This document shows, in pieces, positions 4,143 to 57,578 of a stretch of 64,000 nt of DNA. The position numbers were made by a program, and so were the translations under genes. Under the pieces are notes generated by a model, which saw nothing but the letters and a program-made list of their open reading frames with translations, was not told where the DNA came from and made no database searches. Source of the stretch: an uncultured Acidobacteriota bacterium (lineage in GTDB: Bacteria; Acidobacteriota; Thermoanaerobaculia; Thermoanaerobaculales; Sulfomarinibacteraceae); NCBI GenBank assembly GCA_963823445.1, contig CAWGLT010000023.1:151018-215017 (forward strand), given 5' to 3'. Numbering within the stretch: the stretch's first letter is position 1; every line of letters begins with the position of its first letter.

Positions 4143-4161
4143 CCGGACTCCTACGATTACA

Positions 4162-4189
4162 AAGGGGGCCCCGCTCGGGGCCCCCTTTC
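4162..4189. terminator. bidirectional intrinsic terminator hairpin
   Basis: AAAGGGGGCCCC-GCTC-GGGGCCCCCTTT, a perfect 12-bp stem flanked by A and T runs, between convergent genes. Confidence 0.85.
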
Positions 4190-5627: not shown

Positions 5628-5790
5628 GAGGCACCCCCTCGCAAATGATTTTACTGAAAGGCCGGGAAAGCATACCACCGACATCGCCGGCTCCGTGGCC
5701 TTCAGCCGCAGTTTGCGGATTTCTCCCGCGCTGCAACCATTGGTCGGTTGCGGCCAAGTACTGGAGATGACGGAGAATGAGAGGCTGACG

Positions 5791-6327
5791 ATGAAACGCA
5801 TGATGACGTTGACGATGGTCGTGATCGGACTCGGGATAGCCGGGATCCGCGCAGCGGAGAACGGGGGGCAAGAAATGGGCGAAGTCATTTCCGTGTGGTC
5901 GGTGGAAGAGGGGAAGATGATCTCGACTGCCAGAATCATCAAGAGCGATGACGATTGGCAGCGGGAGCTGTCTCCGGAGGTGTACAAGATCACCCGAAGA
6001 AAGGGCACCGAGATGTCGTGCTCCGGAGCCTACTGGAAGAACGATCGCGAAGGTGTCTACCGCTGCGCCGCCTGTGGGAACGATCTCTTCGTCTCGACCA
6101 CGAAGTACACGTCCGGCACGGGCTGGCCGAGCTTCTTCCAACCGGTCCACGACGCAAACATCGGCAGCGAGCGCGACACCAGTCTGGGCATGGTGCGCGT
6201 CGAGGTTCATTGCGAGCGTTGTGGATCCCACCTCGGCCACGTCTTTCCCGACGGACCGAAACCCACCGGAAAGAGGTATTGCATCAATTCGCTGGCCCTC
6301 GACTTCGTCGAGATGGAAGTCAAGTAA
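5791..6327 (+). CDS. msrB: peptide-methionine (R)-S-oxide reductase with signal peptide
   Basis: Two CxxC pairs ([21 protein letters not shown]) and GWPSF. Signal-like [18 protein letters not shown]. The start could also be ATG 5767. Confidence 0.85.
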
Positions 6328-6330
6328 TTT

Positions 6331-6437
6331 TCAATTATGAATTTTTAATTATGAATTATGAATTGCGGAAGCTCTTCGACACCGTCGTGAGAATCTGCGA
6401 TGGAATTCATAATTCACAATTCATAATTCATAATTGA
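6331..6437. repeat. AT-rich hairpin built from heptad repeats (GAATTAT)n / (ATAATTC)n
   Basis: The 5' arm TCAATTATGAATTTTTAATTATGAATTATGAATTGCG pairs imperfectly with the 3' arm GGAATTCATAATTCACAATTCATAATTCATAATTGA. The loop is ~30 nt of normal GC content. It sits between msrB and the next gene. Confidence 0.85.
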
Positions 6438-9715: not shown

Positions 9716-11512
9716 TCAGGAGCCCGTCGCAGGCAGGGCTGGATGCATGACGCGATAGATCGGCAGAAGACCGACCTGCTCGTCCCAGTGCGGGGTCCGC
9801 CGGTACCACCAGTCGTAACGCGCGCGCCCGTCGGCGGCGAAATCGGGATTCTCGAGCGCCGACTCCCACTCCGCCCTGGTGGCGTCGTCGGCGAGCATCT
9901 CGACCGCCAGCTCCTCGAGCTTGTCGAGCCCGATATAGGTCTTTTGCTCGAAGACCGAGTCGAGCGCGCCCCAGCGCAGCAGCGAATCCGGCGCCTCGGG
10001 TTCGAAGAGCTGGACCGCGACGGCGAAGTCCGGCTGGTCGGCCGGGATCCACAGGCTGCCCGCGGGGATCCGGCGGGTCTCCGTCTGCCGGGTGGTGACG
10101 AAATCCCTGACCATCACCGTGCCCTGGAAGGGAGCCTCGGCGAAGACCGGTGCGGCGACCCGGATGGTCTCGACCTCGAGCTCGACGGGCGCGGACAGGC
10201 GCTGCGTCACCAGGTGGTGCGCTTCGACCACCTCGACGAGCTGCGGCCAACCCGCGTGGACGAGATAGCCGCGCGGGCGCGCGAGCTCGAGTTCGGGCGC
10301 CGCAACGTGCCGGAAGGAGATCTCGGCCGGGACGATCTCGTCGCGGTGGTAGACAGTGCGCGGTCCGCCGGTGACCACCGAGGTCTCGGTGGTGGTGCGG
10401 TAGGACGGCCAGGTGAACTCGTCGTCGCTGTCGACGCCGCGCCACCGCACGATCACGGTCGACGGATCGGCGTCCGGTCCTGCCGAGAGCGCGGGTCCTC
10501 GCTTCCGCCGCCTGCGACCGCCGCAACGAGCGTCGACCCGGACCGGCCGGTCTCGACGATGAGGGCGTCCATGAAGTCGCGGTTGGCGAGCACCCGATCC
10601 CGGTACGGCTTGTGCGCGTGCATCTCGATGAGGATCGACGGCCGATTGATGAGCGGGAAGAACCCGGTCGAGTAGCGCGGCAGCTGGATGTCCGACCAGT
10701 CGACCCCGCTCGTCGGGTCGTCCCAGTCGACGAACGCGAGGTAGGGGCCGTTGGGGTGGCCGGCGGCGGCGGTGGCGTCGAGCACCCGCGGCAGGTGCGC
10801 AGCGACCCAGGCGTCGACCGCGGGGTCGAGTCGAGGTGCCTCGGCGACCATCCAGGTCAGAACCCAGGCGTGGTCGGAGCCGTTGGTGACGTGGTTGTCG
10901 ACGTGGAGGTGCGGCCGCCAGTCGGCGACGAGCTGCGCGAGCGCCCGCGCCTCGGGGCTCGCGAGCCGGAGGAAGTCGCGGTTGAGGTTGAGCCCGGCGG
11001 TGGTGGCGCGAAAGCCCATGCCCTCGACCGGGCCGTTCTGGTTGGGCCGGTTGTACGGCGAGACCCGCTCGTGGCCGTCGAGGTTGAAGATCGGCACGAA
11101 GAGCGTCACCGCCGCCTCGGCGAGATCCGGGCCGTCGGCCCAGGGCGATCTCGCGCAAAAGCATGAGGGTGGCGTCCTTGCCGTCGATCTCGCCGGCGTG
11201 GATGCCGCTTTGCAACAGCAGGATCGGCTTGCCGGCGGCGCGGGCAGCGGCCGGGGTGAAGGCTCCGTCGGACGAGACGATGACGAGGGGCAGCTCGCGG
11301 CCCTCGGCGGTTTCGCCGAAGCTCGTGACGCGGATGGTCTTCGGAGCGCGCGACTCGACGCGGCGGAGGAAGTCCATGGTCTCGGCAACGGTCGATGTGG
11401 CGCGGAAGTCGGTCTTCTCCGCCACCGTCTGCCAGACCTCGGGGACGTCCTCGGCGGTTGCGGGGCAGGGGAGGAGCAAGACAAGGCCGGCGAAGAGGGA
11501 AAGTCGTTTCAT
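9716..11512 (-). pseudogene. M14-family zinc carboxypeptidase, coding sense split over two reading frames
   Basis: The signal peptide, HxxE (SGIHAGEIDG) and the C-terminal third read in the frame of ORF 9716..11608. The central ~650 nt (TLFVPIFNLDGHER, NLNRDF, LHVDNH, ILIEMH) reads only in the frame of ORF 10453..11484. Frame switches are near 11140-11160 and 10485-10510. Confidence 0.55.
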
Positions 11513-11519
11513 GGCCGCC

Positions 11520-11547
11520 ACTCTAGCCCATCGCATTCTTACCGCAA
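11520..11547 (-). promoter_or_regulatory. sigma70-like promoter TTGCGG-16-TAGAGT, 7 nt before the ATG of the M14 gene
   Basis: Minus-strand reading is TTGCGGtaagaatgcgatgggcTAGAGTggcggccATG. The same module occurs at 13406-13433. Confidence 0.45.
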
Positions 11548-11595
11548 AGACCGCCAAGAACGCAAAGGACGTTGCAAAGGACATCGCCATATTGA
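11520..11595 (-). repeat. 9-nt-periodic repeat module E, copy 1
   Basis: ACCGCAAAG ACCGCCAAG AACGCAAAG GACGTTGCAAAG GAC. Homologous to 13403-13475 and to the arms of the hairpin at 16281-16438. Confidence 0.8.
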
Positions 11596-11699
11596 CCCGT
11601 CGCGGCATCGCACAATGGCGTGCCCGGCACCCCGAGGGACGTTTCTTTCCCTCCGACCCGGGGCGGCATCTGCCGCTGTCGGCCCGGCCGCTGCCGCTG

Positions 11700-11800
11700 C
11701 CCCCGACAGGCTGGAAGCCTGTCGCTACACAGGGGCCGTTCTTGATTGTGTAGCGACAGCCATCCTGGCTGTCGTCGGTGACGTGCCCGAACGCGGTACC
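11700..11800 (+). repeat. REPIN-like triple-hairpin element, copy A1
   Basis: GACAGGCT-GGA-AGCCTGTC (11705-11723), GCTACACA-15nt-TGTGTAGC (11724-11754), GACAGCCA-TCC-TGGCTGTC (11755-11773), with a conserved tail GTCGGTGACGTGCCCGAACGCGGT. Confidence 0.9.
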
Positions 11801-11907
11801 CTACCGCTGCCCCGGCCGCTGTCAGTGACGCTGTCCCGGCCGCTGTCGCTGTTCCCGGTTCTCACGGCTCCGGCCTTCCGGTCCGCCTTCGGCGGCCCGG
11901 CGTCGCC

Positions 11908-12126
11908 CCATCGGCGGGGTCGCTTGGGTGGTGAATGGGAAGGGCTGCGACCCCGCCGATGGCGCGCCGGCGGCCTTCTTCGTTGCCGGAGCAGAGGACC
12001 GCATCGCGCCTCCCGGGGGAGCCCGGTATGACAATGTGCGCAACGGGTTGCGGTGCCGGGAGGACTTTGGGGCACATTGTCAAACCCCGCACCCCGAGGA
12101 TCGCCCCTTTCCCTCCGACCCGGGGC
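11908..12126 (+). repeat. composite structured repeat B, copy B1
   Basis: 16-bp hairpin CCATCGGCGGGGTCGC/GCGACCCCGCCGATGG (11908-11962), then hairpin TGACAATGTGC/GCACATTGTCA (12029-12082), then a GCACCCCGAGG tail. Homologous to 26611-26886 (inverted) and 40839-41053. Confidence 0.85.
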
Positions 12127-12236
12127 AGTCTCGGTTCGGGTCCCGGGTGCGGTCGCTGGTTGCTGCCGCTGTCCCTGCTTGCTGTCGCTGATCGCTGCCA
12201 CTGATTGCCGCCGCCGCTCTGTGGTGGCCGCGGAAC

Positions 12237-13385: not shown

Positions 13386-13402
13386 CAGCCGATCCCAAGG
13401 AC

Positions 13403-13475
13403 GCCACTCTAGCCCATTGAATATTCACCGCAAAGAACGCCAAGATCGCAAAGGACGTCACATTTGACGTGTGGG
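13403..13475 (-). repeat. 9-nt-periodic repeat module E, copy 2
   Basis: ACCGCAAAG AACGCCAAG ATCGCAAAG GACG followed by the small hairpin ACGTCA-catt-TGACGT. Confidence 0.8.
13406..13433 (-). promoter_or_regulatory. sigma70-like promoter TTGCGG-16-TAGAGT upstream of the SGNH hydrolase gene
   Basis: Minus-strand reading is TTGCGGtgaatattcaatgggcTAGAGTggcg. It is the second copy of the promoter-bearing module E. Confidence 0.4.
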
Positions 13476-13540
13476 TGGCGCGGGGCTTCGAGGGTGCCTG
13501 ACTGCGTGGTGGCGATTCGCGTTCCGGGTTGGACGCTGAA

Positions 13541-13604
13541 GGCAGGCAGGATGCCTGCCCCACAACGGAGACGGTTGAGTTGTGGAGCAGGCTTCCAGCC
13601 TGCT
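13541..13604 (+). repeat. REPIN-like triple-hairpin element, divergent copy A4
   Basis: GGCAGGCA-GGA-TGCCTGCC, CCACAAC-12nt-GTTGTGG, AGCAGGCT-TCC-AGCCTGCT. Same architecture and loops as A1-A3, with different self-complementary stems. Confidence 0.85.
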
Positions 13605-13761
13605 CATGATGGGATGATTCAATAATGTGATGGTTTTGCGATGGGTCGAAGGCGAGGCGCCGGCGGCCTCCCTCTGAGCCGGGAGAACACGGCCGCAACG
13701 TTGTAACCCGTGGTTAGGGATGAACGTCGCCAGGAACGCCCCGCCGAGCCTGATGCTGGCG

Positions 13762-13868
13762 TCGCGGGTGGCCGAGGGAGCCACCTTTAGCATTGTTCGG
13801 GATCAGCGTTGAGCCGAAGATCGGCGACTCACACCCGAACAATGACAAAAGACGGCACCCCGTTCGAC
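13762..13868 (+). repeat. two-helix hairpin element, copy D1
   Basis: GGGAGCCACCTTTAG CATTGTTCGG (13791-13800) ... CCGAACAATG (13835-13844) ACAAAAGACGGCACCCCGTTCGA. Near-identical flanks occur at 52622-52729. Confidence 0.85.
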
Positions 13869-13952: not shown

Positions 13953-15182
13953 CTAGGGCATCTCGGTCCGGGTGAGCATCTCCATCGCCTCCGGCCGCGG
14001 CTCGTTCTTCTTCGAATCCCAGTAGGGCGAGAGCCGTCGCAGGCTGTCGACGATCCCGGGAAAGACCTCGATGACTCGATCGACCTCGGCTTCGGTGTTG
14101 TAGCGGCTGAGCGAGAAGCGCACCGAGCCGTGGATCGCCGAGAAGGGGATGTGCATGGCTCTGAGGACGTGCGAGGGCTCGAGGGAGCCGGAGGTGCAGG
14201 CCGAGCCCGATGAGGCGCAGATGCCCTGCGCGCTGAGCTGGTAGAGGATGCCCTCGCCCTCGATGAAGTGGCAGGCGACGTTGAGGGTGTTGGAAAGCCG
14301 CGGCGAGTTCCTGCCGTTGACTTCGAGGTAGGGGATGCGGGCGACGAGCTCCCGCTCCAGGCGGTCGCGCATGGCGAGAATCCGCGGTTCGTCCTCATCG
14401 TGCCGCGCCATGGCGAGCTCGAGGGCCTTGGCGAGGGCGACGATGAAGGCGACGTTTTCGGTCCCCGCTCGACGCCCGTCCTCCTGGTGGCCGCCGAGGA
14501 GAAACGGCCGGCAACGGGTGCCGCGGCGGATGTAGAGGGCGCCGACGCCCTTGGGCGCGTGCAGCTTGTGGCCGGAGAACGACAGCAGGTCGACATGCTT
14601 GAACGAGCCGCGGAGATCGATTGGGAGCTTGCCCACGGTCTGGGTGGCGTCGGTGTGGAAGATGATGCTCTCGTCGGTTTCCTTGGTGATGCGGGAGAGC
14701 TCTTCGACCGGAAAGATGACCCCGGTTTCGTTGTTCGCGTGCATCACCGAAACCATCAGGGTGTCGGATCGGAGGGCGCGGACGAACTCGACGCGGTCGA
14801 TCTGACCATCGGCATCGACCGGGATGAAGTCGACGTCAAGGCCTCTGCGTCGGAGATCCTCGCCGACGGAGAAGATGGCCGGGTGCTCGACCCCGGTCGT
14901 GATGATGTGGCGGCGCTCCGGATTGGCGGCGATGGCGCCGAAGACCGCCGTGTTGTTGGACTCGGTCGCGCAGGAGGTGAAGAGGATCTCGGGCGGCCGG
15001 GCGTTGCCGAGGAGCCTGGCGACGGTCTTGCGCGCGTCGGCGATGGCGTCGGCCGGGATCTGGGCCGGTTCGTAGAGCGAACTCGGGTTGTAATAGTCAT
15101 CGGTGAGGAAGGGCATCAACGCCTCGACCACCTCGGGCGCAACCCGGGTGGTGGCGTTGTTGTCCATGTAGATGATGTTCAT
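13953..15182 (-). CDS. nifS: cysteine desulfurase (NifS/IscS type)
   Basis: 409 aa. PLP Lys context SFSGHKLHAPKG and active-site loop SSGSACTS. Downstream of nifU on the minus strand. Confidence 0.9.
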   Translation of the reverse strand: MNIIYMDNNATTRVAPEVVEALMPFLTDDYYNPSSLYEPAQIPADAIADARKTVARLLGNARPPEILFTSCATESNNTAVFGAIAANPERRHIITTGVEHPAIFSVGEDLRRRGLDVDFIPVDADGQIDRVEFVRALRSDTLMVSVMHANNETGVIFPVEELSRITKETDESIIFHTDATQTVGKLPIDLRGSFKHVDLLSFSGHKLHAPKGVGALYIRRGTRCRPFLLGGHQEDGRRAGTENVAFIVALAKALELAMARHDEDEPRILAMRDRLERELVARIPYLEVNGRNSPRLSNTLNVACHFIEGEGILYQLSAQGICASSGSACTSGSLEPSHVLRAMHIPFSAIHGSVRFSLSRYNTEAEVDRVIEVFPGIVDSLRRLSPYWDSKKNEPRPEAMEMLTRTEMP

Positions 15183-19391: not shown

Positions 19392-19458
19392 GGGAATCGC
19401 TCGATTGACATCCCCTCGGCACCGGCCGACGCGTTCCCTGTCGATGCCCCTGCCGCTG

Positions 19459-19600
19459 CCCCCGACAGGCTGGAAGCCTGTCGCTACACAGCGGCCGTTC
19501 TTGATTGTGTAGCGACAGCCATCCTGGCTGTCGTCGGTGACGTGCCCGAACGCGGTCCCCTGCCGCTGCCGCTGCCGCTGACGCTGCGGCTGCCGCTGCC
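19459..19600 (+). repeat. REPIN-like triple-hairpin element with (GCTGCC)n tail, copy A2
   Basis: Hairpins at 19464-19482, 19483-19513 and 19514-19532. Nearly identical to A1 and A3. Confidence 0.9.
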
Positions 19601-19603
19601 GTC

Positions 19604-19659
19604 GGTCGCTGCCCCGGTCGCGCGGTCGCTGCCCCGGTCGCTGCCCCGGTCGCTGCCCC
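19604..19659 (+). repeat. 12-mer microsatellite (GGTCGCTGCCCC)n
   Basis: Four full units and one truncated unit between A2 and A3. Confidence 0.9.
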
Positions 19660-19797
19660 CGACAGGCTGGAAGCCTGTCGCTACACAGCGGCCGTTCTTG
19701 ATTGTGTAGCGACAGCCATCCTGGCTGTCGTCGGTGACGTGCCCGAACGCGGTACCCTGCCGCTGCCGCTGCTGCTGACGCTGCGGCTGCCGCTGCC
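19656..19797 (+). repeat. REPIN-like triple-hairpin element with (GCTGCC)n tail, copy A3
   Basis: Starts 197 bp after A2. Hairpins at 19661-19679 and 19711-19729 flank the central GCTACACA/TGTGTAGC hairpin. Confidence 0.9.
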
Positions 19798-19867
19798 CCT
19801 GCTTGCGCGCTGAATCGGAAACGGGTTCGGAGGCAATTGCGGGCGAGGTGGGCTACAGTACGGTGCC

Positions 19868-22177: not shown

Positions 22178-22249
22178 GCCGACCGGACCCGTGCGGGTTG
22201 ATCCGGCGGAATCGCTCATCCCGGGTGGCGATGGACAGCACCCCCTCGC

Positions 22250-22405
22250 TTGCGTAGACTCGAGAGGACCGAATATGGGGAAGACGGTGCGAATCCGTCG
22301 CGGACCCGCCGCTGTGACCGGGGACGATGACCGGCAGAACCACTGCAATCGGTGATTGTGGGAAGGGCCGGTAGGTAGGACGATCCGGGAGCCAGAAGAC
22401 CCGCA
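22250..22405 (+). promoter_or_regulatory. cobalamin (B12) riboswitch
   Basis: GGGGAAGACGGTGCGAATCCGTCGCGGACCCGCCGCTGTGACCGGGGACGA ... CAGAACCACTG ... GGGAAGG ... GGGAGCCAGAAGACCCGC matches the conserved core and B12 box as I remember them. It lies directly upstream of a BtuF-like binding-protein gene. Confidence 0.8.
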
Positions 22406-22440
22406 GTTCGGCTTTGACGACCCTCGTGGATTGGGGTTTG

Positions 22441-26484: not shown

Positions 26485-26610
26485 GGTTGCCTCCTCCGCG
26501 TCGGATGCCCGCCATTCTCGCACATCATCCCGCGTCCGCGTCGGTTTCCGTGCCCATGCCCGATGTCTCAGCGGCAGCGGCAACCAGCGGCAACAACCAG
26601 CGACCGATAC

Positions 26611-26886
26611 GCCCTCCAGGACCCGCGGAAAACCACGCCCCATCGGGGTGCCGGGTTTGACATTGTGCCGGAGCGACCGACCAGCTTCGCGGCGCTCCCC
26701 GCACAATGTCATACCGGGCTCCCCCGGGACGGGCGATGAAGTCTGATCTCCCGGCTACGAAGCAGGCCGCCGGCGTGCCATCGGCGTGGTCGCAGCCCTT
26801 TCAATCAACCCGCGAGCGACCACGCCGATGGCGCGACGCTGGGCCGCTGGGACGCCAAAGCGTCACGGCGGCCCGGAAGGCCGGGG
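26611..26886 (-). repeat. composite structured repeat B, copy B2 (inverted)
   Basis: Hairpins TGACATTGTGC/GCACAATGTCA (26658-26711), CCATCGGCGTGGTCGC/GCGACCACGCCGATGG (26778-26831) and GACGC-CAAA-GCGTC (26851-26864). Roughly 85% identical by eye to 40800-41053 when reverse-complemented. Confidence 0.85.
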
Positions 26887-27113
26887 ATGAGGACAGCATC
26901 AGGGGCAGCATCAGCGACAGCGTCAGGAATCACCGACAGCGACAGCGGCGGCGGCAGTCTTCAGGGGCAGCGACAGTGGCAGCAATCAGGGACAGCGTCA
27001 GGAACCAACGGCAAAACGTGCGCGATCGGACGTTTCCCTTGACGCGGATCGCAGCATCAACACTCCTGGTTGTTCTTGATGAGACGGGAATCTGCGCCTC
27101 TGCGTTGAAACCG

Positions 27114-39851: not shown

Positions 39852-40070
39852 CCCTCGGGGCTTCCAGGATCCGTGCCCGGGTCCGCGTCCGATTCCGTTT
39901 CCGTTCCCGATCCCGATCCCGGTCCCGAATAGCAGCGTCCGGGGCAGTGGCAGCGGCAGCGCCAGGGGCAGCGACCGGGGCAGCGGCAGGAACAGCGGCG
40001 GCGTCAGCCTCCGCGTTTCTTTCCGTGCCCGTATCCGCTTCCGTGACAGATCCGAGCCGATCTGCGATGG

Positions 40071-40838
40071 ATTGTGGGGGCGGGCTTCCAGCCTGCCCGT
40101 CAGGGTTGTTGAAGCCGGCCGTGCGTTCCCGAGAGAGTGCGGGGTATTGGGTCTTGTGGGATCTCGGGTTCCTGTCCTCCTCCCCGGCCTTCTGGGCCGC
40201 CGTGACGCTCTGGCGTCCCGGCGACCCAGCGTCGCACCATCGGCGTGGTCGCGGTTTTCTTTCAGGTTGGGCGGACATTGTGGGGGCGGGCTTCCAGCCT
40301 GCCCGTCAGGGTTGTTGAAGCCGGCCGTGCGTTGCCGAGAGAGTGCGGGGTATTGGGTCTTGTGGGATCTCGGGTTCCTGCCCTCGTCCCCGGCCTTCTG
40401 GGCCGCCGTGACGCTGTTGCGTCCCGGTGTCCCAGCGTCGCACCATCGGCGTGGTCGCGGTTTTCTTTCAGGTTGGGCGGTCATTGTGGGGGCGGGCTTC
40501 CAGCCTGCCCGTCAGGGTTGTTGAAGCCGGCCGGGCGTTGCCGAGAGAGTGCGGGGTATTGGGTCTTGCGGGATCTCGGGTTCCTGCCCTCGTCCCCGGC
40601 CTTCTGGGCCGCCGTGACGCAGTGCGTCCCGGCGACCCAGCGTCGCGCCATCGGCGCAGTCGCGGTTTTCTTTCAGGTTGGGCGGACATTGTGGGGGCGG
40701 GCTTCCAGCCTGCCCGTCAGGGTTGTTGAAGCCGGCCGTGCGTTGCCGAGAGAGTGCGGGGTATTGGGTCTTGCGGGATCTCGGGTTCCTGCCCTCCTCC
40801 CCGGCCTTCTGGGCCGCCTCCGGCGACCCAGCGTCGCA
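40071..40838 (+). repeat. tandem array of four ~206-bp structured non-coding units
   Basis: Units start with ATTGTGGGGG at 40071, 40277, 40483 and 40688 (periods 206, 206, 205). Copies 1-3 are ~95% identical by eye. Copy 4 lacks one internal hairpin and merges into element B3. Confidence 0.9.
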
Positions 40839-41053
40839 CCATCGGCGCGGTCGCGCGTGGGAGGCGGGGAGGGCTGCGACCACGCCGATGGCGCGCCGGC
40901 GGCCTGCCTCGCAGCCGGGAGAGCAGACCGCATCGCGCCTCCCGGGGGAGCCCGGTATGACATTGTGCGGGGAGCGCCGCGAAGCCTGGAGGTCGATCCG
41001 GCACAATGTCAAACCCGGCACCCCGATGGGGCGGGGTATTCCGCGGGTCCTGG
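40839..41053 (+). repeat. composite structured repeat B, copy B3
   Basis: Hairpins CCATCGGCGCGGTCGC/GCGACCACGCCGATGG (40839-40891) and TGACATTGTGC/GCACAATGTCA (40958-41011), with tail AAACCCGGCACCCCGATGGGGCGGGGTATTCCGCGGGTCCTGG. Confidence 0.85.
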
Positions 41054-41170
41054 TCGGGCGCTGTCGCTGTCGCTGATTCCTGCCGCTGTCCTGCCGCTGT
41101 TCCTGCCGCTGTCCCGGCCGCTGCATGCTGCCCCTGCCGCTGTCCCGGATACGGTTGTATCCTCGCGGTC

Positions 41171-44494: not shown

Positions 44495-44538
44495 CCGAGA
44501 ATCGGTGAGGTTTTTTCGAAAACCTCACCGATTCTCGG
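44495..44538. terminator. bidirectional intrinsic terminator
   Basis: CCGAGAATCGGTGAGGTTTT-TTCG-AAAACCTCACCGATTCTCGG, a perfect 20-bp stem. The 3' arm overlaps the last codons of the ABC-F gene. Confidence 0.85.
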
Positions 44539-49681: not shown

Positions 49682-49704
49682 GGGTGGGAATGATACTTGA
49701 TCTT

Positions 49705-49809
49705 CGTGAGACGTGAGGGGGTGAGGAAGTGAGGAGGTTCGAAGGCGAGGAGTGGAGTGTGAAGAACCTCCTAACCCCTAACTCCTAACCCCTCACTCTT
49801 CACCTCTCG
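49705..49809. repeat. heptad-periodic imperfect hairpin (GTGAGGN)n / (CCTAACN)n
   Basis: CGTGAGACGTGAGGGGGTGAGGAAGTGAGGAGGTTC ... GAACCTCCTAACCCCTAACTCCTAACCCCTCACTCTTCACCTCTCG. The right arm overlaps the 3' end of the HD-GYP CDS. Confidence 0.75.
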
Positions 49810-51036
49810 ATCCCCGAGCCGATCCCAGATCTCCGCCATGCCGCCGTGGTGGTCGGCGAAGAGCCGCCGGAGATCCGGGTCGAGGTGGCCGTCCGGGTCC
49901 ATCCGATCGTCGCCGTCGAGGATGACCTTGCGCGACTGGTCGTGGCTGAACCCGATCTTGTACGGGCGCGTCGAACGGAGTGCATCGTAGATGTCCGCGA
50001 GGGCGACGATCCGCGCCTCGATGGGGATCTCCTCGCCCCGCCGGCGGTTGGGATACCCGCCGCCGTCCCAGCGCTCGTGGTGGTTGAGGGCGATGGCTGC
50101 CGCCATCTGGAGCCGGTCCGAGGACTCGAGGATCTGATAGCCGAAGACCGGGTGCTGGTTCATTTCGGCCCGTTCGTCGGCGTCGAGTGGTCCCTTCTTG
50201 CGGAGGACCATCCCATCCACGCTCATCTTGCCGACATCGTGGAGTTGAGCGGAGTACCGGATCTCGTCGCAAAAGCTCGCCGGCATCCCGTGCGTCCTCG
50301 CGATGAAGTAGGAGTACTCGTTGACCCGCAGGACATGGGATGCGGTGTCGGTGTCGTGGACCTCGGCCGCGCGGGCGAGGAGGTTGATGGAGAGCTGGAA
50401 CGCCTCTTCGGTTTCCTGGTGCAGGGCGGCGATTTTCTCTCTCTGCTCGGCGAGGATCCTGTTGCGATCGCGAAGCCTGACGTTCTGCGCCTTGATGCGT
50501 CCGAGCATCTCGGCCCGTTCGATGGCGCTGCCGACGATGTGGTTGACCGGGACGATGAGGCCCGCCTGTTCTTCACCGAATGGCAACGGCCGATCGATTT
50601 CGCCGGTTCTCCGGTTGATGAGCTGGACCACGCCGACGACGTTGCGGTCGTAGTTGAGGAGCGGAAAGGAGAGCATGGAACGGCTGTGGTACCCGTGTTT
50701 GAGGTCGAATCGGCGATCAAAGGTGTAGGGGACGCTGCGCGGGAGATCGTAGAGGTCCTCGACGAAAACCGTCTCTCCGGTGGTGGCGGTGAATCCGGCG
50801 ATGGAGGAGGGTGTCATGGGCACGACGAAGGACGCGGGTTTCACGGCGATGACGTCGTTTTGTGAGTCGGCCGCCTCGAGCCGCCGGCTGCGCCCGCGAC
50901 CCCTGACGATGAAGATGGTGCCGGCTTCCGCTCCCGTGAGCTCGCGGCTCTTGAGGAGCACGCGGTGCATGAGCCTTTCCACGGACTCGGGCTTCGACGA
51001 TTCGATGAACTCGAGAAACTCCCTGAGTGCGTCCAT
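49771..51036 (-). CDS. GAF domain - HD-GYP domain protein (c-di-GMP phosphodiesterase type)
   Basis: HDVGK and HHERWDGGGYP motifs, with an N-terminal GAF-like domain. Confidence 0.85.
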   Translation of the reverse strand: MDALREFLEFIESSKPESVERLMHRVLLKSRELTGAEAGTIFIVRGRGRSRRLEAADSQNDVIAVKPASFVVPMTPSSIAGFTATTGETVFVEDLYDLPRSVPYTFDRRFDLKHGYHSRSMLSFPLLNYDRNVVGVVQLINRRTGEIDRPLPFGEEQAGLIVPVNHIVGSAIERAEMLGRIKAQNVRLRDRNRILAEQREKIAALHQETEEAFQLSINLLARAAEVHDTDTASHVLRVNEYSYFIARTHGMPASFCDEIRYSAQLHDVGKMSVDGMVLRKKGPLDADERAEMNQHPVFGYQILESSDRLQMAAAIALNHHERWDGGGYPNRRRGEEIPIEARIVALADIYDALRSTRPYKIGFSHDQSRKVILDGDDRMDPDGHLDPDLRRLFADHHGGMAEIWDRLGDREVKSEGLGVRG

Positions 51037-52394: not shown

Positions 52395-52504
52395 TGTGGT
52401 TGATCAACCTCCGGCGGCGCCTGACGATTCCAGGTAACAAGATGATTGCGTCCGGCTGCGGTGCCTGGCGCTCGGGGCGCGATGGACAGCGCATTCAGCG
52501 GCGC

Positions 52505-52546
52505 GTGCCTGGCTCTCTTTTCGTCCGACGAAAAGGTGCCTGGCAC
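52505..52546 (+). repeat. GTGCCTGGC-flanked hairpin element, copy F2
   Basis: GTGCCTGGCTCT CTTTTCG-TCCGA-CGAAAAG GTGCCTGGCAC. Flanks are conserved with copy F3 over ~70 nt. Confidence 0.9.
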
Positions 52547-52621
52547 CGCACGGGAACAATGATGAAAGCATCATGTCCTGGCAAGCGTTTCTGGCAGCGC
52601 CGTCCCGAACCCGATTCTCCC

Positions 52622-52729
52622 ATCGCGGGTGGCCGTGGGAGCCACCTTTAGCATTGTTCGGCATCGAGGTGAGGCCGACGTCGAGGCCACTCTGAATCCG
52701 AACAATGCAAAAGATGGCACCCCGTTCGA
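52622..52729 (+). repeat. two-helix hairpin element, copy D2
   Basis: GGGAGCCACCTTTAG CATTGTTCGG (52652-52661) ... CCGAACAATG (52698-52707) CAAAAGATGGCACCCCGTTCGA. Confidence 0.85.
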
Positions 52730-53915: not shown

Positions 53916-54013
53916 TTCGTGATCTCCCTGCAGGCACGATGGGTGCCGAATGAGTATACGGGGGCTGCGATGCAGGGTTTGACCGAAAACGGGTAGGATG
54001 AGGTGTCAATTTT

Positions 54014-54162
54014 GAATGATGAATTATGAATTATGAATTATGAATTATGAGTTGAGAATTCGGAGTGAGGTGTGAGGAAGTACGTGCTGCGGTAAGGGGT
54101 GCGACACGCCCAACGTCTAACGTCTAACGTCTAACCCCTAACGTCCAACTCCTAACCTCCTG
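54014..54162. repeat. two abutting heptad arrays: (GAATTAT)4 grading into GAGTGAG/GTGTGAG, then (CGTCTAA)3 grading into CCCCTAA/CTCCTAA
   Basis: 7-nt periodicity over about 10 units on the left (54014-54083) and about 7 units on the right (54114-54162), in a divergent promoter region. Confidence 0.8.
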
Positions 54163-57351: not shown

Positions 57352-57428
57352 TTCGGGCTTGCGATGTCCCGGGTTCTGATGATCGGTGCTGGCTCCTGGG
57401 GAACGAAGGACAGCGCGTTCAGCGGCGC

Positions 57429-57470
57429 GTGCCTGGCTCTCTTTTCGTCCGACGAAAAGGTGCCTGGCAC
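57429..57470 (+). repeat. GTGCCTGGC-flanked hairpin element, copy F3
   Basis: Core identical to F2. Lies in the 227-nt spacer upstream of the RNase H gene. Confidence 0.9.
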
Positions 57471-57578
57471 CGCACGGGAAGGGCGCTCAAAGCACCATGC
57501 GAGGAAAGGCGATTCGTTCGGAGCTTCGGGCTAGCTTGGTTTGCCGCCGGAGTGGTGACTGCGCTACCGTCACTCATC

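Follow-up and report, generated by a model that had tools for sequence, protein, structure and literature searches.

Intergenic hairpin doublets with constant heads and loops in an Acidobacteriota genome are probable REPINs with RAYT-flanking counterparts in a metagenome

A stretch of 64,000 nt from contig CAWGLT010000023.1 of an uncultured Acidobacteriota bacterium (hereafter the window) carries four intergenic triple hairpins, A1 to A4, and raises the question of what kind of element keeps its triloops while exchanging its stems. Inverted pairs of repetitive extragenic palindromes (REPs) are known as REPINs (REP doublets forming hairpins) and are associated with single-copy REP-associated tyrosine transposases (RAYTs), as set out in PMC3337134 and PMC5581495. 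We conclude that the four elements are probably REPINs, namely head-to-head doublets of GTAG- or GTGG-headed REPs that, as non-autonomous single-stranded DNA (ssDNA) elements, would depend on a RAYT encoded elsewhere in the genome. A1 to A4 represent one family of doublets and a sister family, and the RAYT clade in question is common in Thermoanaerobaculia-like bacteria. The REPIN/RAYT element type is a known one, here with an unusually clear constancy of head and loop and in a phylum for which GTAG REPs had not been listed. The REPIN interpretation had been put forward in a first-pass annotation made from the letters of the window, and it is now supported by a RAYT gene flanked by the same doublet on a metagenome contig (L142), by related RAYTs, some of them from Thermoanaerobaculales, and by the absence of copies in close relatives.

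A1, A2 and A3 are near-identical 71-nt triple hairpins in which the segments CGACAGGCT-GGA-AGCCTGTCG, CTACACA-15 nt-TGTGTAG and CGACAGCCA-TCC-TGGCTGTCG follow one another without a single linker base (Table 1). A1 differs from A2 and A3 at 1 of 71 core positions (98.6% identity), and each 27-nt half of the doublet matches the window three times with no mismatch, against no matches expected from 100 shuffles. All three copies are members of one 176-nt repeat family, and a tandem duplication of 197 bp gave rise to A2 and A3 (1.8 copies with 96% matches in TRF). A4 shares the layout of A1 to A3 and their GGA and TCC triloops, but its self-complementary stems have other sequences. Together with its head, each outer hairpin has the form of a GTAG-type REP palindrome (GTAG + CGACAGCCA-TCC-TGGCTGTCG and GTAG + CGACAGGCT-TCC-AGCCTGTCG, with GTGG variants in A4 and in a 206-bp array), its stem being readable as 9 bp, and two such units stand head to head around an inter-hairpin segment of 29 nt. 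The GTGG-headed hairpin GGGCGGGCT-TCC-AGCCTGCCC also starts all four units of the 206-bp array (40071-40893), and the window as a whole holds 12 GTRG-headed TCC hairpins in 64 kb. Every copy is extragenic, lying between genes with Pfam support: the spacers that carry doublets are those between M14 peptidase and GDSL lipase, GDSL lipase and NifS, and hemerythrin and amidohydrolase, and the Pfam-matched genes around the copies encode an M14 peptidase, a GDSL lipase, a NifS-type aminotransferase, a gamma-glutamyltranspeptidase, a hemerythrin-domain protein and an amidohydrolase. On all of these structural points, from the near identity and unlinked layout of A1 to A3 and the 197-bp offset of A3 to the divergent stems of A4, the inverted pair of REP units and the REP-like half at the head of each array unit, the first-pass annotation had read the sequence correctly. 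A further hairpin at 626-646, GGACCGGCT-GGA-AGCCGGTCC, has the apex and triloop of the REPs but lacks their GTRG head and is possibly the remnant of a decayed REP.

The pattern of fixed loops and exchanged stems extends well beyond the four copies. In the window and related loci, 44 distinct units consist of TTGT(A/G)G, a GC-rich stem of 8-9 bp, TCC and the complementary stem, and they fall into at least eight stem families, including CGACAGSSW, RGCAGGCW, GGGCGGGCK, CGCCGGCG, GGCCGGCG, TGCGGGCK, GGCAGCCG and CGCAAGCT. Among 26 representative units, six of the eight stem pairs are changed on both sides (43 cells), a score reached by no shuffle. These units had been picked for pairing and a TCC loop, and the search was repeated with the loop unconstrained: TCC then forms the loop of 12/13 GTRG-headed hairpins in the window, and loops beginning with TC(C/T) are found in 70/73 hairpins at relatives' loci not chosen by loop and in 47/50 at loci of metagenome-assembled genomes (MAGs). 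The claim that stems covary while the GGA and TCC loops stay fixed, made at first for the copies in the window, is thus confirmed as a general one. The relatedness of A4, on which that claim partly hung, is upheld by the recurrence of an A4-type sister REP family in the relatives L116 and L079; A4 belongs to this sister family and is not a chance look-alike. A sequence collection was also scanned with the loose pattern GTAGCGACAG-N9-CTGTCG, the figures from which describe the matches listed and are not genome-wide counts. Among these matches, near-identical full doublets are numerous in the Acidobacteriota MAG MFD03804.bin.1.249 (at least 13) and occur once in MFD09964.bin.2.45, and the apex is perfectly self-complementary in 73 of 124, against 1.6% expected by chance.

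Hairpins that share the head and stem base (GTAG-CGACAG...CTGTCG) but have other apexes are abundant, among the matches listed, in MAGs of Planctomycetota (GCGGCTCGC), Acidobacteriaceae (CCGCCTCGG), Chloroflexi (GGCTTGCCC), Bacteroidota (GTCTCAGAC) and Verrucomicrobiota (GCGTCCCGC), at loci L005, L007, L027, L066, L008, L017, L013, L012, L048 and others, which suggests a REP class common to several phyla.

An inverted pair of REPs may fold as three local hairpins or as one long hairpin, and the first-pass annotation had favoured the former. In an alignment of 15 doublets, three from the window and 12 from the Acidobacteriota MAG, 95.7% of cells are paired under the three-hairpin fold, compared with 82.4% under the single long hairpin, which has four fixed mismatches. 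Near the loop, two base pairs are swapped between the halves (GCT/AGC versus CCA/TGG), each swap being compensated within its own hairpin; this compensation had been recognised in the annotation, although the differing positions number four bases (two swapped base pairs) and not the three it had counted. The resulting 'heterodimer' with two apexes, GCT on the left and CCA on the right, is kept in the window, the Acidobacteriota MAG and metagenome contigs (29 non-redundant doublets). Folding energy was dropped as an arbiter, the plus-strand long fold (-23.9 kcal/mol) and the minus-strand three-hairpin fold (-23.3 kcal/mol) being equivalent as DNA; both lie far below shuffled sequences (z = -6.4 and -7.1), and RNA folds of the doublets behave alike (-37 to -40 kcal/mol, z about -6). 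With the energies equivalent, the preference for local hairpins comes only from the comparison of sequences, in which compensatory differences between left and right preserve each of these hairpins.

A connection to a RAYT comes from a metagenome scan with GTAGCGAYAGSSWTCCWSSCTGTCG, which gave 35 contigs carrying the unit. On contig L142, an open reading frame (ORF) at 1018-1719 on the minus strand matches the E. coli YafM query (phmmer, 4.2e-12). It scores 88.1 bits with the NCBIfam model NF047646, 'REP-associated tyrosine transposase' (cut-off 80), and 27.7 with Pfam Y1_Tnp (cut-off 23), whereas its score with the IS200 model (18.8 bits) is under the cut-off of 55. Its sole solved relative is TnpArep (PDB 4ER8, E = 1.5e-9), and its tyrosine motif reads YSEQNP. 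The same doublet, with GCT and CCA apexes, flanks this gene at 951-1014 and again as a cluster at 1672-1966 made up of a single REP and three to four doublets, so that a RAYT gene between copies of the same hairpins, as the annotation had envisaged, is present on this contig. Homologous RAYTs are numerous and often bear the Joint Genome Institute (JGI) label 'REP element-mobilizing transposase RayT'. They are 49-64% identical, and 5/5 of those fetched with their context are flanked by arrays of their own TTGTRG-stem-TCC-type REPs (Table 1). The HxH motif, the catalytic Tyr and the NP that follows it are invariant among these RAYTs and E. coli TnpA-REP. In L155 and L156-L158 the RAYT adjoins BlaI/BlaR-like genes (Peptidase_M56/Penicillinase_R), a position that fits a fixed place on the chromosome and vertical inheritance. 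Most of the RAYT contigs found are about 1 kb long. The assemblies that yielded the RAYTs L159 and L160 also contain the closest syntenic relatives of this genome. At least one of them, ERZ25039600, was rejected as a single genome, as it contains two different syntenic contigs; it is a metagenome with two related genomes, and these RAYTs were therefore not assigned to a particular genome. Apart from the RAYT-bearing contigs, no RAYT was found in any other fetched locus with phmmer and a hidden Markov model (HMM) of the RAYT clade, and a weak IS200 match in L097 was discarded as spurious, lying inside a gene for a 682-aa membrane protein on the opposite strand. The named sources of RAYT homologues with about 46% identity include Planctomycetota.

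The doublet is conserved as a unit, an inverted REP pair with a short spacer, in 29 non-redundant copies from several genomes, and its two ends differ. On the left, about 8 nt are semi-conserved (cgctgNCC, then C/T), while about 22 nt are conserved on the right (CGgTG.CGTgCCggaaCgCgG); with this one-sided 3' tail the unit is asymmetric and about 100 nt long. The annotation had described a tail followed by a (GCTGCC)n tract after the right hairpin. That sequence is there, with the correction that the tail belongs to the conserved unit and the tract lies outside it, since both empty orthologous sites (in L116 and L161) retain the tract. Copy-specific target duplication was not found in 27 doublets, the left and right flanks matching at 6.04 of 9 positions versus 5.99 +/- 0.14 under shuffled pairing. 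Target-site duplication was likewise rejected for the window copies, the direct repeats around them being derived from the hexamer tract. Tracts of the (GCTGYC)n or CGCTGCCCCGGT type abut every REPIN and every copy of a second repeat, module X, in the window, and the tract unit of the MFD MAG is a different one (CACGGT/ACGGAT). From this pattern of sequence, the tracts are plausible preferred landing sites of the doublets, or they may have arisen as a by-product when copies were inserted.

Whether copies come and go was examined in four syntenic contigs, L115, L116, L161 and L162, with 92-95% identity of the NifS protein and about 85-90% identity of gene DNA. The NifS-type protein is encoded at 13953-15182 on the minus strand, and its named relatives at 88% identity are Thermoanaerobaculales and 'Sulfomarinibacteraceae'. 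A2 and A3 are missing from the orthologous spacer in all four contigs, and this spacer between the hemerythrin and amidohydrolase genes is a hot spot of repeat turnover, with five states among close relatives (Table 1). A1 is missing in L161, where 197 bp of the window's GDSL-M14 spacer are absent (the 3' fragment of X, the tract, A1 and its tail) and the spacer consists of the tract followed by the orthologous X only. A4 is found at the same spacer in L116, inside an inverted block of about 198 bp, and is absent in L115 and L162. The block comprises A4 and about 100 bp upstream (window 13438-13635, L116 11414-11609, 85% identity), and its inversion is relative to the flanking NifS and GDSL genes, the block being on the same strand and the genes reversed. 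Presence/absence polymorphism, which the annotation had named as a check on its reading, is thus found at the orthologous sites of A1 and A2/A3. These copies are 98.6% identical while polymorphic among relatives, which indicates recent copying.

The company kept by the doublets suggests a rival account. Module X, a structured repeat of about 270 nt that adjoins A1, is 70-90% identical between the window and loci of the Acidobacteriota MAG. Its two-domain fold comprises 63 pairs, with pairing in 96.7% of cells, and includes an invariant U-G pair; 12 pairs show compensatory change, and these values were reached in 0 of 500 shuffles. X matched no family in Rfam 15 and might represent a structured RNA not yet described, or else another ssDNA element, moved by the same or a different enzyme. 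At 11610-12215 the succession of tract, doublet, tail, tract and X has the composition of a bacterial interspersed mosaic element (BIME). The doublet might then be a module of a larger mosaic of tracts, doublet and X, not independently mobile and spread by recombination (homologous or illegitimate), slippage and tandem duplication without any RAYT. Doublet and X do keep one relative orientation in 9/9 adjacent cases, and X is present with the doublet in 10/35 metagenome contigs, but X is missing from the vicinity of A2/A3 and of most metagenome copies, and the doublets flanking the RAYT in L142 occur without it. Tandem arrays, namely the 459-bp units of doublet plus X in L079 and the 197-bp and 206-bp repeats of the window (the latter a single REP plus the 5' third of X), would likewise suit such a mosaic, as would the different modules seen at the same orthologous spacer in different relatives; against this, the doublet has conserved boundaries of its own, and recombination alone leaves a fixed head and loop with covarying stems across families unexplained. 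We regard this account as unlikely.

It is still less probable, and in our view very doubtful, that the hairpins are kept for a role of the host at the RNA level, such as 3'-end protection, termination or binding of GGA loops by a CsrA/RsmA-type protein, and that selection explains their repetition. The strong RNA folds given above and the location of 4/4 doublets between co-directional genes would agree with such a role, as would the C-to-T variants, which yield G-T/G-U pairs on the GTAG strand, and the report that many GTAG REPs are probably transcribed (PMC3733652). Yet the REP hairpins lack a T-run behind them, and the 7 terminator-like sites of the region are not above chance (4.8 +/- 2.5). 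An intrinsic terminator was in fact considered and rejected: what adjoins the REP hairpins is TCGGTGACG on the far side or GCCCC in front, and only weak sites, not above chance, lie inside the spacer. Close relatives lack the element at the same spacers, each doublet offers only one GGA loop per strand, and the REP hairpins have no Rfam match, the doublets giving with Rfam 15 only generic hairpin (miRNA-precursor) matches far below threshold. A host role would, moreover, be compatible with a RAYT origin and would not replace it. That the doublets represent both ends of insertion sequences of the IS200/IS605 type that have decayed, moved by an ordinary multi-copy TnpA in the manner of palindrome-associated transposable elements (PATEs), is hardly credible: asymmetric ends with hairpins set in from conserved flanking motifs, the lack of a copy-specific target duplication (as expected for IS200/IS605) and the association with a Y1 HUH enzyme would accord with it, but this protein exceeds the NCBIfam RAYT equivalog cut-off and falls short of that for IS200, its best solved relative is TnpArep, its homologues occupy a conserved position by BlaI/BlaR-like genes in several genomes, as fits vertical inheritance, the GTAG head on the hairpins is typical of REPs, and no tnpB is present.

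Several observations nonetheless weigh against the REPIN interpretation. The window holds only four doublets, of which A2 and A3 stem from tandem duplication and not from transposition, and the frequent adjacency of doublet and X in fixed relative orientation means that some copies may spread in the larger mosaic by recombination. Presence/absence among relatives is equally explicable by deletion in those relatives. As the annotation had stated, the window contains no RAYT gene (phmmer and RAYT clade HMM), and a cognate RAYT in this organism is putative; the RAYT that bears this exact doublet is on a 6.4-kb metagenome contig of unassigned taxonomy, and L159 is not assignable to a particular relative, ERZ25039600 having two syntenic contigs. 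To our knowledge, RAYT-driven mobilisation of REPINs has never been shown directly in vivo in any system.

Taking the elements as REPINs, we propose the following hypothetical multistep scheme, modelled on HUH-Y1 enzymes and E. coli TnpA-REP as established for the family and described in PMC2817692, PMC3337134, PMC5581495, PMC3733652 and PMC6006769, in which (i) each REP would fold into its own 9-bp hairpin on ssDNA, for example the lagging-strand template; (ii) the RAYT would recognise the shape of the hairpin, the TTGTRG head left unpaired at its 5' side and probably, in this clade, also the TCC loop, head and loop alone being constant across at least eight stem families; (iii) the RAYT would cut and rejoin the strand, and the doublet with its 3' tail of about 22 nt (about 100 nt in all) would be copied to new intergenic sites, which in this lineage would be (GCTGYC)n tracts; (iv) local tandem duplication would amplify copies, as in A2/A3 and the 206-bp array; and (v) compensatory drift of the stems, each tracking its own RAYT, would give rise to sister families such as A4. 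A more specific version may be entertained, tentatively and with the balance of our judgement against it: the RAYT clade would ignore the stem sequence and read the fixed TTGTRG head and the TCC loop, the asymmetric REPIN of about 100 nt would be inserted at (GCTGYC)n tracts specifically, the conserved junction on the left, cgctgNCC(C/T), would act as a left cleavage/target site of IS200/IS605 type, and repeated hits would build BIME-like mosaics with X.

The elements can be placed among known systems. As in the REPINs of Pseudomonas fluorescens SBW25 and other Gammaproteobacteria (Bertels & Rainey 2011, PMC3116915; PMC3337134; PMC5581495), an inverted REP pair with a short spacer can fold as one or as separate hairpins, copies are extragenic and probably dispersed, several sister families per genome are possible, and a Y1 transposase gene lies between REPs of its own. 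In contrast to the SBW25 type, the host is an acidobacterium, probably of the Thermoanaerobaculia, the element measures 71 nt with hairpins that abut without linkers, the apexes of the two arms are fixed but unlike each other, all families have the TCC triloop, and there are a one-sided conserved 3' tail and an embedding in hexamer tracts. A survey by Di Nocera, De Gregorio & Rocco (2013, PMC3733652) described GTAG-tagged REPs, including GTGG variants, with head-to-head dimers around conserved spacers of 20-100 bp. The present units share with its families, such as Stenotrophomonas SMAG and the GTGG REPs of Opitutus terrae, the unpaired 5' GTAG/GTGG, a stem of 6-13 bp with a 2-3-nt loop and tolerated G-T pairs, as well as head-to-head pairing across conserved spacers (20-100 bp) whose ends are complementary, and heterodimers with different stems. 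That survey covers GTAG/CGTC REPs in Proteobacteria, Cyanobacteria, Chloroflexi and the Planctomycetes-Verrucomicrobia-Chlamydiae (PVC) group and lists Acidobacteria only for tyrosine transposases with long terminal inverted repeats (TIRYTs), so the families found here are not among its 24 (PMC3733652). The L142 RAYT shares the HUH and Tyr...NP motifs with the TnpA-REP of the E. coli REP/BIME system (YafM, PDB 4ER8), with 26% identity over the alignment, and in both cases REPs are joined with other conserved motifs in mosaic, partly tandem arrays; the REP sequences, however, are unrelated, and the partners here are a structured module of about 270 nt and hexamer tracts instead of S, L and r motifs. 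Like IS200/IS605 elements (IS608, ISDra2) and PATEs, the system involves a Y1 HUH enzyme that would act on ssDNA hairpins, asymmetric ends, no target duplication and a conserved sequence abutting the left end. Unlike them, it has neither an internal transposase nor tnpB, its protein fits the RAYT and not the IS200 model, and its hairpins carry a GTAG head.

Our literature search found no paper on REPINs in Thermoanaerobaculia. With these elements the REPIN/RAYT system would be extended to Acidobacteriota, probably Thermoanaerobaculia, a phylum without GTAG REPs in the published survey. With at least eight stem families and six diverged RAYTs that share one head and one loop, the lineage offers a natural experiment in RAYT-REP co-evolution, and the shared head and loop predict the contacts made by the enzyme. 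The practical consequences are modest: such repeats break metagenome assemblies, indicate which intergenic spacers change fast and could be used to mark strains. Less ordinary than the REPINs are module X and the hexamer tracts that accompany them.

Table 1. Predicted REPINs, associated repeats and orthologous spacer states, and cognate REPs of the RAYT homologues. Positions refer to the window unless another contig is named.
Feature	Position	Strand	Description
REPIN A1	11704..11774	+	left hairpin 11704-11724 + CTAC; 15-nt loop closed by CTACACA/TGTGTAG
A1 right REP	11750-11753 and 11754-11774	+	GTAG, then hairpin
A1 conserved 3' tail	11775..11800	+	TCGGTGACGTGCCCGAACGCGGTACC
REPIN A2	19463..19533	+	left REP 19463-19487 = GTAG + hairpin read on minus strand
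A2 right REP	19509-19533	+	GTAG + CGACAGCCA-TCC-TGGCTGTCG
A2 conserved 3' tail	19534..19559	+	
REPIN A3	19660..19730	+	identical to A2
A3 conserved 3' tail	19731..19756	+	
Tandem duplication, 197 bp	19436..19797	+	doublet + tail + hexamer/12-mer tract; source of A2, A3
REPIN A4, GTGG heads	13541..13605	+	GGCAGGCA-GGA-TGCCTGCC; CCACAAC-12 nt-GTTGTGG; AGCAGGCT-TCC-AGCCTGCT
Single REP, unit 1 of 206-bp array	40074..40098	+	GTGG + GGGCGGGCT-TCC-AGCCTGCCC, one G-T pair
Single REPs, further units of 206-bp array	40280-40304, 40486-40510, 40691-40715	+	as unit 1
(GCTGYC)n tract	11665..11703	+	abuts A1 on left; junction cgctgNCC(C/T) common to doublets of other genomes
Hexamer + 12-mer tract between A2 and A3	19559..19659	+	CTGCCG; CGCTGCCCCGGT; context or likely landing site, outside doublet
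Hexamer/12-mer tracts	11665-11703, 11801-11860, 12140-12215, 19436-19462, 19559-19659, 19756-19802, 26575-26620, 26894-27013, 39889-40010, 41059-41140		
Module X	11870..12126	+	structured repeat of ~270 nt adjoining A1
Module X, further copy	26615-26895	-	
Module X, further copy	40790-41055	+	
X 5' third	40172-40252, 40378-40458, 40584-40663		within 206-bp array units
X 3' fragment	11610-11664		
Hemerythrin-amidohydrolase spacer, window	19392-19867 (476 bp)		hexamer tract + two doublets
Hemerythrin-amidohydrolase spacer, L116	about 5640-5797 (~150 bp)		(CCCTGCC/GCTGCC)n tract only
Hemerythrin-amidohydrolase spacer, L115	5577-5735 (159 bp)		5' part of module X
Hemerythrin-amidohydrolase spacer, L161	5496-6058 (563 bp)		tract + X-like module
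Hemerythrin-amidohydrolase spacer, L162	5750-5782 (33 bp)		nothing
RAYT L152/L154			cognate REP GTAGC-GGCAAGCA-TCCT
RAYT L155			cognate REP GTGG-GGCAGCCG-TCC
RAYT L156-L158 (Thermoanaerobaculales)			cognate REP GTAGC-GCAGGCA-TCC
RAYT L159			cognate REP GTAG-CGCCGACT-TCCA, nine-unit 101-bp array
RAYT L160			cognate REP GTGG-TGCGGGCT-TCC

The window contains further repeats and structured features. A 63-nt repeat at 11510-11572 and 13396-13458 (86% identical), found at the 5' end of each of two genes, for the M14 peptidase and the GDSL lipase, reads ACGTCCTTTGCG..TCTTTGCGGT..GGGCTAGAGTGGCG on the minus strand and looks like a shared promoter/leader module; its position suggests an M14 start codon at about 11512 rather than 11608. 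Two intergenic repeats have two copies each: one at 13737-13817 and 52598-52678 (79% identical), which is also found in the GDSL-M14 spacer of the relative L115, and one at 52465-52575 and 57389-57499 (87% identical), which has a hairpin, CTTTTCGT-CCG-ACGAAAAG. AT-rich heptamer arrays, (AATTATG)n, stand out in a genome of 65% G+C at 6326-6364 with 6404-6435, an inverted pair separated by a spacer of about 40 bp, and at 53994-54060. Other heptamer arrays, (CTAACCC / CTAACGT)n, lie at 49700-49810 and 54106-54157, and the one at 49.7 kb faces a complementary GTGAGG-type array, with which it forms a long imperfect palindrome. Perfect hairpins of 20 bp (44495-44538, between convergent ORFs) and 12 bp (4161-4188) in gene-end spacers are probably ordinary bidirectional terminators. 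Finally, a cobalamin riboswitch (Rfam RF00174, 88.8 bits) at 22219-22422 on the plus strand precedes ABC/FecCD-type transport genes, which are syntenic in the relatives.

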